Assembly (NCBI GenBank): GCA_030295235.1
Contig: AP026148.1
Location: 682,001-746,000, forward strand
Direction: 5' to 3'
Length of the DNA: 64,000 bases
Source: Fistulifera solaris
Taxonomy: Eukaryota
Under the pieces are notes generated by a model. The model was not told where the DNA came from, ran no database searches, and saw nothing but the letters and a program-made list of their open reading frames with translations. Shown here piece after piece: positions 43,448 to 49,427 of this stretch. Positions within the stretch are counted from its first letter, which is position 1. Each line of letters begins with the position of its first letter. Made by a program: the position numbers and the translations under genes.

Positions 43448-43849
43448 ATGAGTTCAAATACAGACATAATGAAAACGCCAATGCTGTATTTATATCGCTC
43501 TCTCTTACGCGCTCATCAGAAATGTTTACCGACGCAAATGAAGCAATTGGGCGATGCCTACGTCAAATCCGAATTCAAATTGCATTTACAGAAAACGGTA
43601 AAACCAGAACAGATGCAGGCTTTCTTATCCGAGTGGAAAAACTATTTGAAGCAATTAGAAACAACCGCGCGAGCCGTCGAACAACAAGTTGTGACGGAAG
43701 GTTCGCCCCATCAACGCGGAAGTAGTAGACCTATCAAGGCAAAAGTGTTTCAATTTGGAGCCGATTTACCATCCGATGTTACTTTGTCTGATGAACAAAA
43801 AGTGCAATTGGAGAAATTGAAAGAAGAAGCGTCATCTTTCAAGATTTGA
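43448..43849 (+). CDS. SDHAF3: Succinate dehydrogenase assembly factor 3 (ACN9/Sdh7, LYR family)
   Basis: LYRSLLRAH..LP..MKQLGDAYVKSEFKLH..FLSEWKNY..LSDEQKVQL. Confidence 0.9.
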   Translation: MSSNTDIMKTPMLYLYRSLLRAHQKCLPTQMKQLGDAYVKSEFKLHLQKTVKPEQMQAFLSEWKNYLKQLETTARAVEQQVVTEGSPHQRGSSRPIKAKVFQFGADLPSDVTLSDEQKVQLEKLKEEASSFKI

Positions 43850-44256
43850 GACAACATAGAGGTGGCATCACTTGAAGGGATGTTGTATATCTAGAGCAAG
43901 CGGTTTCTAGGTCGCAGTTTTTGAAAAATAAATAGATACGACTTGGGCTACTTGGCATTGTGCTCTGTAGCTTAGATCATGCGCTAACTACTAATTTACT
44001 ACTACGTATGTTGTTATTCCTAAACTTCTCCACAGCAACATTTTCGTGATAACATTCCATGACACATCTCACCTTCCCTATCGCATGCATTACCATGAGC
44101 AGGTTCAAACGGTCGACACAAAGCCACATCCAAACAGACTTTGATTACTCTCAGCATCCTTTCACATCAAGCTCCCGCGGAAAGAGTGTCATTTCATATT
44201 ACCAATGTTACAAGAAGTATTCTTCGATAAAACAAATAAAAAGGCCGCCAATTCGC

Positions 44257-45093
44257 TTAGGCCACAGCATTGCCTCCTTCTCCGACAAAGACGGGCTTGC
44301 CCGTGCGCTCACGGTGCACCAAAAAGAAGGAAAAGAGGCAAAAGACAAAGGCGACCGAGCCAATGACAACCAACGAGATGGCGAGCTTTTCGTTGGTATC
44401 CCTCTCTTTCTTGATTTCGTCCTCGGGATTGTTTGCCTGATAACGTGCGGCACACGAAAAGAAGTCCCCGTCACCACAAAAGAGATCCGTCTTGCACGCA
44501 TCAAACCACGAGTCGCAAAAGCTCTTCTTGATGGGCATTTTGTGCATCTGCCACGTGTTGAACTCTTCCAAATGCGACTGGCTGTCGTTGTACTTACGGA
44601 ATAGACCCGCCGACGGCTCGCACTCGTAGAAACAGGATTCATACACGAAAAAGCGCTCACACGCTGGTGTCATGGGGCCGCATCGATCCCAGTGATACTC
44701 TTCACCGTACGATTCCTTCAATTTCTCCATACTGGCAACGATTGAACTGTTGCAGCAGGAGCGTTGCTTCCAAGGCTGGCATTCCTTCATGCCGTCGTCT
44801 TCGGGAGTCGGCTCGTCCTTGTGAAAGTACTGTAAACCGCATTCCTCAGGCGGCTGCTCACCAAAGATATCCAAGGTGACTTGATCGTTCGGATTCTTAT
44901 CCGTATCGAAGAACCACATGGTGTAGCCAGGTTCCGTGTCATCGACGACGAGGAAACTGTCAGAAAATAATTTCTGGCAGAGCTCGGTTCCGCTGGCGTA
45001 GATCTCAGGGAAGGGTCGGCAGGTTTCTTCCCAAGCCATGGTTGTAGGCAAAGCCATTAAGGCGTAAGCGTAGTACTTGATCGAGAACTTCAT
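44257..45093 (-). CDS. Folate-receptor/riboflavin-binding family type I membrane protein with circularly permuted domain order
   Basis: Signal peptide, HKDEPTPED..CQPWKQRSCC, WDRCG.MTPACERFF..CFYECEP and CDSWFDAC, then a C-terminal TM segment and short tail. Confidence 0.88.
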   Translation of the reverse strand: MKFSIKYYAYALMALPTTMAWEETCRPFPEIYASGTELCQKLFSDSFLVVDDTEPGYTMWFFDTDKNPNDQVTLDIFGEQPPEECGLQYFHKDEPTPEDDGMKECQPWKQRSCCNSSIVASMEKLKESYGEEYHWDRCGPMTPACERFFVYESCFYECEPSAGLFRKYNDSQSHLEEFNTWQMHKMPIKKSFCDSWFDACKTDLFCGDGDFFSCAARYQANNPEDEIKKERDTNEKLAISLVVIGSVAFVFCLFSFFLVHRERTGKPVFVGEGGNAVA

Positions 45094-45390
45094 GATCTTG
45101 TAAAAGTTACGTTCAAGTAAAAAAAGAAGATACTTTATTAATCCAAAAGATCTTTTAGTAAGACGAAAAGTCGTTACCTCTGAAATAATGAGGACGAAAT
45201 GAATGGATGGACGAGATCGTTTGAGTGACAACAGGGATCGAAGGAATTTTTCTGGATCGTACCAAAAGATCGCACATCGCACACCATTCGTCTCAAAGAT
45301 ACAGTATGGCAAACAGCGGGCGGCGGGCGGCGGGGAGAGTTCCCAACGACGTACTTGCTGGAGAGAGTCTGGACTATTGTGTGGTACTCT

Positions 45391-45471
45391 GGGAACGGCG
45401 TTAAAATTCTGCCTCGTCGTAGACGCTACGTACAATCTTGTACTGGGAGGCAGAATTTTAACGTCCTTCCC
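45391..45471. repeat. 81-bp hairpin element (MITE-like), copy 2 (inverted)
   Basis: Reverse complement of 1942-2022 with 2 substitutions, both in the loop. Confidence 0.9.
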
Positions 45472-46645
45472 GGAGAACCAGAAAACCTTTGCGTCAGCTT
45501 AGCCTTGACTCTTTTATGAATAAATCGTTCACCCTACCAGTAAGAAAGATTGTTTTTCGCTTCATGAAGGAGTCCACCCTCACCAGCTTCCTTCCGTTCC
45601 GATTGTCCTGCTAGCTTGCATTTGCCTTCCTACCAGGAAATGATGCAGATGACCACAGCAGCATTCTTAATGCGCATCGCGATATTCGTTCGAAACTACA
45701 AATCTATTTTGAGTCAAGAGTCAATTTTCTTCCGAACCCGTTTGCTACCTCACCAACCTTTGTTCTGAAAGCTTATTAAGCTATAGCTTCCTTTTATTAC
45801 ATTGAAGTAATAATCAGCAGCTACAATGCAAGTGTCGATTCGTTACGTCTCGATAGAAGCAGACCTTTTACCACGAATGCATATCAGCATATCAGTCATG
45901 AGGAAACGGAGTCCCGAGCCTGATTTCTGCCCTCCTTCGTCCAACATACGGAAGTCCTTGTTCATCATTCATCAGTCATCATACATTGTCATTTGGGAGA
46001 TAAGATGGTTTGACTAGAGTTGCTAGATACATAACTTTGTTAATGTTGTGTCCTCAAATTCATCTGCCAATTAATTTCAAGTCGCCTTTTTCGCCGACAT
46101 GGAAGTCTGTCAGGATCAGGTACTTTGATTCAGCTTTCCTTTTGTCCTCTTTCGTCTCGTTAGGGAACCTTAGCTCTAGCTCTAGCGCCATTTTGCTGAT
46201 GTTGGGATTTGGGATCAGGCAGACGGACGCAGAACCTCTGTACCACAAATTTCTCAGTAGGGAACGAAATGTGTTGCTCTGTATTCTGTTCTTCATTGCC
46301 ACCTCAATTATTCCGAGGCATAATAACCCAAATCCCAAATCATGCAAAAGCAGCAGGACGAATTTCTTGGATATTCCCAACTTCTCGATAAGTCGGTCCC
46401 AATCATTCTTTCCTGTACACTACGACCGATAGGACACTTTCGGCTTCAAGACCAGAAAAGTAAAAAATGACTGGTCATTTTGCCTTCCGACATCTTATCC
46501 GCTGCCGCCGCGAGAAAGGAGGACAAAAGACCCTCCGTCCGCTACCGCCGGTACCGTACCTGGTATTCATTTGCGTTCAACTCTTTGATGAGTAAACAGC
46601 AAATTTGCTGCTTGAAAGACATTCGTTTCATACAATCATAATATC

Positions 46646-47189
46646 ATGTCGGAACTAAGCTATAATACTACCAGCAGCGTAATCGAATCGTGGGAGAGAC
46701 TCAAGCGTATCAAGAATTACCAAGAAGTCGCTGGTGTCACTGTTTTTCAAAGGTATGATGAATAGTATACAATTGCGTGCTTCTGTTTGCCGTCTCTAAT
46801 AGCTCTCATTTCATAGACTTTTCGAGAAATGTCCCCAAGCGCGCGTCTTATTCGGCTTTCCTATTGATATCGATACAAATTCATCCGAGCTTTTGCAATC
46901 GAAACGTTTCTTGACACACGCTGCGCATATGATGGATATGATGGACGCTGCTTTGAGCATGTTTTTGGGCCCCGACATGGACATGCTACATGAAATCATT
47001 GACGAGCTCGCCGATAAACACAGACGCTATGGCGTCACCGCTCCCATGTTTCCGATTCTGGGCGAAGGCTTTCTTCTGGCACTGGAAACGCATCTCGGTG
47101 AATCTTTCTTCGACAACAAAATGAAGGAGGCCTGGAAAGAAGCCTATTCTCTTCTTTCATGTGAAATGATCAATGCCATGTCAAAGTAG
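46646..47189 (+). CDS. Single-domain 3/3 globin; intron 46753-46816
   Basis: VIESW, GVTVFQR|LFEKCP..LF (CD1 Phe), distal His RFLTHA, proximal His LADKH and KEAW. Confidence 0.92.
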
Positions 47190-47432: not shown

Positions 47433-49427
47433 TTACCATGCGGCTCCAAAATTGCCACCACCGGCATTTCCACCGTATCCGCCACCACCATTGTAGCCTC
47501 CGCCACCACCGTGATATCCTCCACTGCCTCCTCCATAGTTGCGATTGCCTCCGCCACCACGGTTGTTGTTGTTATTGCTGTAACGGACATCGCGGCTTCC
47601 AAATCCACCCCCGCCGCCGCGACCGCGGCCTCGTCCACCACCGCCACTACGTCCCGTATAGTTGCACATTTGATTCAACCAACTGGGAACTTGCTGATCA
47701 TTTTCATCGAGCAAGTCACGCAACTCGCGAATTATACCACTATTCTTCTCGTTGACAAAAGAAAGAGCTGCTCCGGTGTTTTCCTGCACGGCCTGTACGG
47801 CCAATACGGTGAACGTAATCATCAATATTGCCAGGCAAATCGTAATTGATGACTTGCGTCACATTGGGAATGTCGAGACCACGACTAGCGACGTCGGTGG
47901 CTACCATGACGGGTGTTTGTCCCGATTTGAAGCAGCGCAAAGCATATTCACGTTCACGTTGACTTTTGTCACCATGAATGCTGCACGCGGGAAACTTATT
48001 CTGGCACAACATGTCTTCTACGTAGTCGCAAGAGCGCTTAGTCTCAACGAAGATAAGGATGAGGCCTTCCTCAATAGTGAATAGAAACTTCATCAGGGTA
48101 TCCATTTTTTCGCGTTCTTCGACAAATTCAACGGTTTGCGAAACGTCCTTCGAGGCTGAACCGACACGGCCGACAGTGAGGAATATGTAGTCGCGCATAA
48201 AGTCGCTCGCCAAGCGCTGGATATTTGCGGGGAATGTAGCACTAAACAACATGGTTTGACGTTCCGGCGAACCGGGCATGTCCGACTCTTCAACGATTCG
48301 GCGAATTTGTGGCTAAAAATGACAAAAAATTCTAAAAGTGAGTCAAGTTGGAGCGAGAAGCGACCTGAACATCTAATCAAGTGGTGTACTTACTTCGAAA
48401 CCCATATCAAGCATGCGATCGGCTTCGTCCAAAACGAGGAAGCGTACATTCTCCATCGAGATACGTCCACGCTCCATCAGATCGACCAAGCGACCCGGCG
48501 TGGCGACGAGCAAATCACAACCTGCCTCGATTTGACGCAACTGATCACGCACTTCAGCTCCTCCGTAGATGACCACAGGGGCAATTCCGGTGCAGTACGT
48601 AAAGCGACGCGCTTCATCAAAGATCTGCTGCGCCAACTCACGCGTAGGAGCCAAAACGAGCGCTTCGGGATACGTGCAGCGGTGACTGTTCGCATTAGAG
48701 GGAGGATCACGTCCCCCGTTACGGATCATAGTCAAGATGGTAGGAAACAAAAACCCAGCCGTCTTCCCACTTCCAGTTTGTGCACAGGCCATCAGATCAC
48801 GACCGATAGTGCAGATCGGAATACTGTACTTCTGTACGGGAGTCGGCTTTGTGTAACCGCACAACTGAGCATTGCGGAACAAGTCCTCGCCAATCGTATC
48901 GACCGTGTATTCCGAGATGGGATCGGGGACATTTTCTCCTGACACATCAATGGGAATTTTGTCGTAGTTATCAAAGTTGATCCCCGTCGTTTGCTTGTCG
49001 GTCGTATCAAACAGACGCTGCTCCAAGCGTTTGTCGGGGTTCATATCACCATGAAAACCGCGTTCATTCTTACGGGGACCACTGCGGCTGTAAGAACCGC
49101 GTCCTCCGCCACCGCCTCCGGCGTTGTTCCAACGCGTGTTGGTGGAAAAGCCGCTTCCGCGATCGTCATCGCGATTGTTGTAGCCCCCACGACCACCTTC
49201 TACGCGGCCGCCGTAGCTACCGCGACCTCCCCCACTGTAGCCGCCTCCACGACGATCGTAACCGCCTCGTCCTTGCGAAGAAAACGAACTGCGTTGCTCC
49301 GAATTACGTTGCTCGGAATTATTGCCACCGCCACTTCTCTGAGAGTTTCTCAGATGAGGTGGCACGTACTGCTACCTGAAAGATTAGATTGTTTGTGTGA
49401 GTTGTTATTTGTTAAAGTACTTGTCAT
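47433..49427 (-). CDS. DDX3: DEAD-box RNA helicase DDX3/Ded1; intron 48313-48393; probable 5' micro-exon; frameshift near 47783
   Basis: [52 protein letters not shown] and RG-rich termini. Confidence 0.95.

Follow-up and report, generated by a model that had tools for sequence, protein, structure and literature searches.

What does a diatom encode when a folate-receptor domain appears with its C-terminal part placed ahead of its N-terminal core, and which vitamin would such a protein serve? The question arises in a stretch of 64,000 nucleotides of Fistulifera solaris (contig AP026148.1, positions 682,001 to 746,000; hereafter the window), where an open reading frame without introns on the minus strand, at 44257-45093, encodes a protein of 278 residues (P0001). 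The Pfam family PF03024 matches this protein in two stretches (E 1.8e-34; 119.5 bits versus a curated cut-off of 29.8), and all the motifs quoted by an earlier sequence-only reading, which had called it a circularly permuted folate receptor with a transmembrane anchor, are present in the frame. The features of the locus are as follows:

44057..44188, minus (the gene's strand): TPP riboswitch (RF00059) aptamer downstream of the gene, 68 nt past the stop codon (Rfam)
44257..45093, minus: single-exon coding sequence of a type I membrane protein with an almost certainly permuted FOLR/FRBP fold (Pfam, PDB search, profile, model)
45034..45093, minus: probable signal peptide, residues 1-20 (weak hydropathy, relatives' leaders, low pLDDT)
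44863..45033, minus: segment B, residues 21-77, equivalent to FRalpha 151-206, the C-terminal part of folate receptors (sequence and structure comparison); includes C25, C39 and F43, the last being the W171 equivalent
44842..44862, minus: linker, residues 78-84, bridging the former C-terminal helix and the former N-terminus (pLDDT ~89-97)
44452..44841, minus: segment A, residues 85-214, the Frizzled-like cysteine-rich core (FRalpha ~15-147; Pfam, PDB search, model); includes E152 (D81), Y156 (Y85), N179, W181, Q182 and a shortened C206-C214 loop
44374..44451, minus: helical stalk, residues 215-240 (model helices at 211-221 and 223-263)
44317..44373, minus: transmembrane helix, residues 241-259 (19-residue window hydropathy 2.8; model)
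44260..44316, minus: cytosolic tail, residues 260-278, with the motif E-(R/K)-x-G-x-P-x-F (conservation in relatives)

Segment order, fold and membrane topology

A phmmer search of the PDB aligned residues 89-207 of P0001 with FRalpha 19-131 and residues 23-73 with FRalpha 151-204 (4lrh numbering). Because the match to the C-terminal part of FRalpha precedes the match to its N-terminal core in the query, the two segments are in swapped order. The front piece matches only weakly when a single sequence is used as the query (12 bits, independent E ~0.9); a profile built from 115 relatives raises this match to 25 bits, with an independent E of 7-9e-5 over the whole PDB, and the same profile finds two stretches in all 10 of the 10 folate receptor (FR), JUNO and riboflavin-binding-protein sequences. 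Two relatives in normal order, compared by BLASTP, likewise give two swapped matches each, with second-match E values of 3e-9 and 3e-6. The segments cover the parent once, residues 85-214 corresponding to FR ~15-147 and 23-77 to FR 151-206 (in JUNO, 20-161 and 168-230). The chain is newly opened between the positions equivalent to FRalpha C147 and C153, and a short linker connects the old ends, the N69-to-C85 spacing that spans it having a median of 17 across 216 permuted proteins. Public contigs bridge the junction of the two segments (pieces at 44692-44959).

Evidence independent of AlphaFold comes from positions that change together across the two segments. C39 (FR C167) and C193 (FR C117) are both present in 195 and both absent in 21 of 217 domain units, with one discordant unit, and on the tree they undergo 11 and 12 changes, 12 jointly. 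Moreover, V49-K190 and C39-C193, which rank first and second among 18,171 covarying pairs, each span the segments (182 sequences, effective number 123). Thus, the phmmer search, the profile, BLASTP and covariation agree on the circular permutation put forward by the sequence-only reading, and we regard it as real with very little reservation.

The AlphaFold model of the full protein has a mean pLDDT of 89 and a pTM of 0.77, with residues 21-80 at 87-98, values to be read with the caveat that the training of AlphaFold includes folate receptors. Structure aligners that follow chain order cover model residues 77-221 alone, placing them on FR or JUNO ~20-161 with Z ~9 and an rmsd of 2.4-2.8 across ~130 residues. 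Taken by itself, the segment 21-80 places 60 of its 60 residues on JUNO 168-230 (Z 2.8, rmsd 3.4), JUNO being the sole chain at Z of at least 2 among 48,161 searched; Foldseek with the front piece alone returns a single weak match, to JUNO (E 1.4). As the JUNO 168-230 match complements the sequential match of 77-221, the two pieces tile the parent fold once. When residues 21-80 are folded alone, the pLDDT is 83, the pTM 0.51, and the strand is lost. As judged indirectly from cross-segment covariation, alignment and the gain of pLDDT and of the strand in the full model, the front piece completes the core fold. It is predicted to pack onto the core by a beta-strand pair and by the putative disulfides C39-C193 and C25-C138.

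The 14 ectodomain cysteines of this four-helix fold align to FR cysteines, and the pairings in FRs include C67-C153 and C130-C147. Two further pairs, C113-C187 and C117-C167, are implied by the pattern C8-C12 and C9-C11 (PMC4256011). Neither end of C113-C187 is kept in the permuted or the algal normal-order proteins; in animal-type units C113 is present in 14/14 and C187 in 13/14.

The transmembrane anchor that had been read from the sequence is likewise found, as a helix at 241-259 with a mean hydropathy of 2.8, followed by a 19-residue polar tail; since the polar tail succeeds the helix, this is an anchor of type I rather than a GPI signal. The tail motif is seen in 142 of the 160 permuted proteins with a transmembrane match, and its positions E262, G265, P267 and F269 are each conserved at 90% or more. 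A signal peptide is probable, though this is a weak point: the hydrophobicity of the P0001 leader is modest (1.17 in the best 11-residue window) and SignalP 4.1 gave no signal peptide for the F. solaris protein (PMC9544697), but the leaders of relatives are more clearly hydrophobic and end before the same W-E-E-x-C start. We also considered whether such a tail is common to other algal nutrient receptors; a search of the F. solaris genome matched the six FOLR copies alone, at a sensitivity too low to reject the idea.

As for the surroundings of the gene, a short palindromic element at 45377-45485, ~280 bp upstream of the start codon, has 39-nt arms that are 85% complementary, recurs across the genome in 40 or more nearly identical copies (40 of 419 candidates scored), and is MITE-like; it shows very high depth in one sequencing run (X1). 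In three runs whose kind was guessed, coverage is confined to the gene, the aptamer (2/3 runs) and the repeat, and one contig spans the end of the coding sequence to the aptamer; we draw no evidence from these runs. Neighboring genes encode an LYR-family protein (43451-43849, plus strand, converging on the aptamer), a globin (46803-47189, plus) and a DEAD-box helicase (47433-49371, minus); no tie between these three and the permuted receptor was seen.

Gene copies, breadth and origin of the permuted order

The gene is present six times in the F. solaris genome, as three pairs of homoeologues, and both homoeologues of the window gene have the permuted order; the translation of the one on contig C25 is identical to GAX20339.1. 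The four paralogues are devoid of the C206-C214 cysteine pair. Two of the six copies (L088:2636-3430 and L089:8625-9257) have a frame break in this assembly, one near the part coding for the transmembrane helix and one near the 5' end; as the matching public proteins P0019 and P0061 are intact, these breaks may be sequence errors. Genes for M43 (pappalysin-like) peptidases are interspersed among those of the paralogue cluster, which is adjoined by a sigma-70 factor gene (L088:3704-4771, L088:355-1200).

The sequence-only reading had treated the protein as a single oddity; this no longer holds. By word search, 254 relatives comparable in length were found (120 of the 254 listed), and a profile search gave 910 clusters at E of 0.001 or less, from which the best 150 of 910 were taken. 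Among the 268 collected proteins, a sample biased to the segment order of the query, 216 are permuted, 17 are in normal order, 10 are tandem and 25 are fragments. The permuted and mostly membrane-anchored form occurs in diatoms (Fistulifera, Nitzschia, Thalassiosira, Cylindrotheca), dinoflagellates (Prorocentrum, Gymnodinium), a haptophyte (Pleurochrysis), choanoflagellates (Microstomoeca, Choanoeca), Telonema, Diplonema and lancelets (three Branchiostoma species), with the caveat that predator transcriptomes may contain prey sequence. The contigs of the lancelet records are 1.6-44 Mb in length. The named normal-order relatives are Cymbomonas, Pyramimonas (in an A-B-A form) and Gromia, and a long tandem in normal order is additionally found in B. 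floridae.

Trees of the individual segments separate a protist clade, comprising the permuted and the algal normal-order proteins, from the animal-type FRs with SH-aLRT of 99-100; these trees comprise 76 and 41 selected rows, and the designation animal-type rests on one named protein. The lancelet permuted proteins nest within the protist clade, and four of them (P0085, P0088, P0090, P0093) have ~50% identity to the diatom protein. Among the matches listed, no named animal besides lancelets has the permuted form, which might have reached them by gene transfer or possibly persisted there through wide loss elsewhere.

In glypicans and FRBPs, C11 and C12 come after C8 and C9 in sequence (PMC4256011), and since these families have the normal cysteine order in common, that order is ancestral and the permuted one derived. 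Free trees need 3-5 changes of segment order; a single permuted clade is not rejected (AU p 0.586; 41 rows, LG+G4). Two normal-order proteins, P0171 and P0209 (Gromia), are placed among permuted ones, and the permuted P0164 is sister to the algal normal-order group (SH-aLRT 97); these placements are possible reversals of the permutation, and the domain may have flipped between orders more than once.

How the permuted order came about had been guessed earlier as tandem duplication. Tandem and A-B-A forms do exist among close relatives, but none is established as the ancestor. The B-to-A spacing in tandem relatives is 9-55 residues and so brackets the median of 17 in the permuted proteins, making duplication followed by trimming feasible. 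We propose that the permutation would have arisen once, by tandem duplication and trimming from A-B-A-B to B-A, inside a protist clade whose pocket had already changed; an origin by duplication is the explanation that we moderately favor. A precedent for this type of event, in a different fold and likened only as a model for duplication plus trimming, is offered by the swaposins, which are natural circular permutations of the disulfide-rich saposin module, a family that also forms tandem repeats.

The tandem forms were recovered by the profile search only, the word search for longer homologues having yielded one candidate of 422, which was not tandem. Other architectures were also noted: P0258 combines a double domain in normal order with a transmembrane helix and a tail of similar type, P0321 and P0335 are fusions of permuted domains with somatomedin B, and in P0241 a long repeat region precedes a domain in normal order. 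Viral relatives were also considered and set aside, as 49 pattern matches on viral contigs contained no true relatives. In the ESM Atlas, P0001 has no match at 0.9 or above, and the normal-order relative P0223 leads to chordate FOLR clusters at 0.90-0.92, which we treat as leads only.

Pocket, TPP aptamers and the predicted ligand

FRalpha contacts folate through D81, R103, R106, H135 and S174 at the pterin, through W102, K136, W138 and W140 at the glutamate and phenyl parts, and through Y85 and W171 as stacking aromatics (PMC9055165). We mapped these contacts through the phmmer alignment and counted residues over 182 relatives; R103 and R106 were mapped by sequence only, in an ungapped alignment anchored at P111/P187. 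D81 is kept as E152 (E in 179, Q in 3 of 182), Y85 as Y156 (180/182), and the W171 position, residue 43, is always aromatic (W in 148, F in 31 including P0001, and Y in 3). Most of the remainder has changed: R103 is replaced by N179 (171/182) and R106 by Q or E at 182, a new W181 is found in 179 of the 182 relatives, S174 corresponds to S46 (A in 109/182), and W102 to F178, which is variable in the family. The loop that holds H135, K136, W138 and W140 is reduced from 16 residues in the FR-like P0245 to 7 here (C206-C214), and in P0001 it is without His, Lys or Trp. As the algal normal-order group also has E152, N179, W181 and Q/E182, the change of the pocket is independent of the permutation. 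What remains is an acid with an aromatic sandwich that could hold an aminopyrimidine ring, as in thiamine; the fit to thiamine is predicted from these residues. A glutamate contact to this ring is known from thiamine-binding proteins. With the swap, the stalk follows directly on the shortened loop that adjoins the pocket, and the pocket therefore probably, if speculatively, faces the membrane differently than in the GPI-anchored receptors; the permutation relocates the membrane anchor to this loop.

A second line of evidence is the linked RNA element. The window aptamer scores 42.1 bits (E 2.5e-5), with model positions 1-105 all matched and the gathering score of 54.3 not reached, and contains the ligand motifs CUGAGA and GCG; in folding energy it does not surpass shuffled sequences (z 0.35), and this measure is uninformative. 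It matches one listed for FisN_9Lh048 (Table S1b, PMC9544697). Aptamers accompany 6/6 gene copies, with 2/6 passing the gathering score. Of 181 metagenome relatives, 79 related loci were kept, and 56 of these have an aptamer at E of 0.1 or less (53 at 35 bits or more, 30 above the gathering score), which corresponds to 34 of 49 clusters at 70% identity. All 56 share the strand of the gene: the 16 in diatom-like loci lie downstream of it, and the other 40 lie upstream, most of them in dinoflagellate-like transcripts. Of the 23 loci without an aptamer some have short flanks, but the majority of haptophyte-like loci are without it even though their flanks are long. Rfam searches of the gene copies and related loci found no folate or FMN aptamer families. 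In the dinoflagellate-like transcripts (L028-L084; e.g. L034:12-109, L051:31-130, L052:33-129) the aptamer is at the extreme 5' end, and three upstream-aptamer transcripts start with what we take to be the spliced-leader tail motif, with the aptamer right after it; this 5' position suggests control of translation. Riboswitches from a Karenia transcriptome have been mentioned previously (PMC4260697).

Genome-wide, at least 12 aptamer matches were found in F. solaris (49 of 1,427 candidates scored). The six that are not at FOLR copies form two clusters of three (C7:971779-975054 and C8:872971-876241; loci L095-L097 and L099-L101), and the adjoining genes are NMT1/THI5-like in 3/3 tested; such clusters have already been noted for this species (PMC9544697). 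Six aptamer-tagged loci of this type would be an odd finding in a host unable to join the precursors.

The host itself appears unable to make thiamine, although genes missing from a draft assembly fall short of proving auxotrophy. Searches of the draft genome gave no match for THIC (control search positive in 13/14 genomes) or for thiamine-phosphate synthase (TMP-TENI; control positive in 11/14); thiamine pyrophosphokinase (TPK) is present. The genome has eight SSF matches, none at an aptamer, of which one presumably resembles a urea transporter and one a choline transporter. Table S3e of PMC9544697 lists F. solaris as without THIC, TH1, THIG and SSSP, the last being the only algal thiamine transporter shown experimentally at the time of that paper. 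As we read this table, 3 of 19 genomes are without TH1 and FOLR is present in 3/3 of these, versus 2/16 of the others (Fisher p 0.010; 0.044 after merging kin).

Hence the ligand is probably not folate, since a TPP aptamer is linked to the gene, most of the folate contacts have changed and the genome searches found neither THIC nor TMP synthase. That the protein has a B1-related function we consider very probable; that it is a cell-surface vitamin B1 receptor is the prediction that we favor, with appreciably less assurance, and the same holds for the uptake of intact thiamine. This gives the earlier notion of an algal B-vitamin receptor a specific form, to which the aptamers at all gene copies and most related loci point. 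Under this proposal, P0001 would enter the secretory pathway as a type I protein with an outer domain that is a whole FRBP fold, its chain opened at a new site. Its pocket would keep an aminopyrimidine clamp of E152, Y156 and F/W43, the contacts for the rest of folate being gone, and would bind B1, probably intact thiamine, at the cell surface. B1 might then enter by endocytosis via the conserved tail or be handed to a carrier, whereupon thiamine pyrophosphokinase would make TPP. The receptor would thereby be the B1 supply route of a diatom apparently unable to make thiamine. Counting against this proposal are the sub-threshold score of the aptamer at 44057..44188, the lack of regulation by diatom aptamers examined elsewhere (PMC9544697), the 23 loci that have no aptamer, the tagged NMT1/THI5-like loci of the host and the weak signal peptide.

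The alternative that fares best retains the same permuted receptor and changes the ligand to another B1 form, either a precursor or degradation product of the pyrimidine or thiazole half (HMP, AmMP, FAMP, HET, cHET) or phosphorylated thiamine. The kept E152, Y156 and W/F43 would fit an aminopyrimidine alone, the host has the aptamer-tagged NMT1/THI5-like genes, and expression of ATS1, a comparable gene of Micromonas, rose more than 100-fold in precursor treatments (PMC4260697). However, as neither a thiamine-phosphate synthase domain in the genome nor TH1 in Table S3e is found, free precursors are not joinable by the known route, and FOLR is present in all three diatom genomes without TH1 (PMC9544697); we regard such a ligand as unlikely. 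Somewhat less likely still is a B1-linked surface protein for sensing, storage or adhesion without delivery, or an aptamer that is a relic beside a protein of unrelated role like JUNO. Here the precedents are that the aptamers examined in two diatoms, P. tricornutum and T. pseudonana, exert no control over expression (PMC9544697), that the strongly conserved cytosolic tail (142/160) could serve signaling, and that the fold family includes non-transport members such as JUNO. Against it, the aptamer is kept at different sites by lineage (3' in diatom-like, 5' in dinoflagellate-like sequences), the pocket is near-invariant (E/Q152 in 182/182, along with Y156 and N179 as counted above), and the presence of the gene tracks the loss of B1 synthesis.

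A scavenging receptor for folate, a pterin or riboflavin, with folate or riboflavin being the ligand named by the sequence-only reading, is what the solved homologues would suggest, as those with a known ligand all bind folate or riboflavin, and D81 (as E), Y85 and the aromatic residue at W171 are kept. Both arginines are nevertheless replaced, the H135-W140 loop is cut short and the linked RNA element is that for TPP, with folate and FMN aptamers not found in the Rfam searches; we therefore regard that ligand assignment as decidedly improbable. Finally, an assembly error, or a front piece that matches by chance, to which the single-sequence E and the structural Z of 2.8 might have pointed, is refuted by the breadth of the family, the same order recurring in 216/268 collected proteins and both homoeologues, with the bridged junction, the profile E and the cross-segment covariation adding to this, and we give it a negligible chance.

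Relation to known receptors

The F. solaris FOLR gene (FisN_9Hh048/FisN_9Lh048, GAX20339.1) was published with its 3' UTR TPP aptamer by Llavero-Pasquina et al. 2022 (PMC9544697), who also proposed thiamine transport by receptor-mediated endocytosis. Whereas aptamers are listed there for two alleles, we find six copies, all with aptamers. The main text and supplement 4 of that paper mention neither the permutation nor the transmembrane anchor of the protein, and a pocket analysis was not found in the accessible part. Within literature mainly of the non-subscription kind, including PMC4807442 and PMC10199209, no report of a permutation of the FR fold or of its breadth was found, and the ECOD study, in its accessible text (PMC4256011), does not apply circular permutation to this fold. 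What appears new is the permuted order with its breadth, the altered pocket and the tie to auxotrophy; the B1 link for the gene is already in print.

A close parallel is ATS1 (Algal Thiamine Sensitive 1) of Micromonas, a PF03024 protein with a TPP riboswitch (McRose et al. 2014, PMC4260697). ATS1 is induced 80-fold without thiamine, such starvation induction having been shown for Micromonas ATS1 only, and the Micromonas strains are without TH1 and THIM and have ATS1 in place of SSSP/SSSF transporters (PMC4260697). It resembles the window gene in combining PF03024 with a TPP aptamer; no relative named Micromonas is among the matches listed. As the named prasinophyte relatives Cymbomonas and Pyramimonas are in normal order, ATS1 may be an unpermuted sister.

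B1 auxotrophy is common in marine eukaryotes, and SSSP is apparently absent from F. solaris. The permuted proteins form a type I membrane subfamily that would act in the manner of a folate receptor and most likely serves vitamin B1 uptake. A bolder version, which we advance only tentatively and at rather less than even confidence, is that the permuted subfamily is a dedicated thiamine receptor and the missing uptake route of SSSP-less B1 auxotrophs in at least six lineages, lancelets having possibly acquired it by gene transfer. If true, thiamine would be the third vitamin for the folate-receptor fold, and the database labels 'folate receptor' and 'riboflavin-binding protein' on these proteins probably name the wrong vitamin. 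Independently of the ligand, this is a natural circular permutation of a drug-target fold for which normal-order sisters and tandem forms are still extant.

At the level of the superfamily, P0001 has the four-helix cysteine-rich core in common with the Frizzled-like CRDs (FZ-CRD, the NPC1 N-terminal domain and glypican), as also reflected in a weak NPC1_N match (E 0.0023; structure Z ~4). In contrast to glypicans and FRBPs, the C11 equivalent (C39) comes first here and C8-C12 is gone. With FOLR1-3, JUNO/FOLR4 and riboflavin-binding protein it shares the fold at ~26-31% identity; it retains 14 of their 16 cysteines, and Y85 is kept, as is the W171 position. It differs from the vertebrate FRs in the swapped segment order, the absence of the C113-C187 pair, the changed R103, R106 and H135-W140 loop, and an anchor consisting of a transmembrane helix and cytosolic tail rather than GPI, attached after the C147 equivalent and not after the last helix; FOLR3, for its part, is secreted, whereas the window protein is anchored in the membrane. 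Thus, on order, pocket and anchor the window protein is outside FOLR proper, and it is within the PF03024/FRBP fold family.
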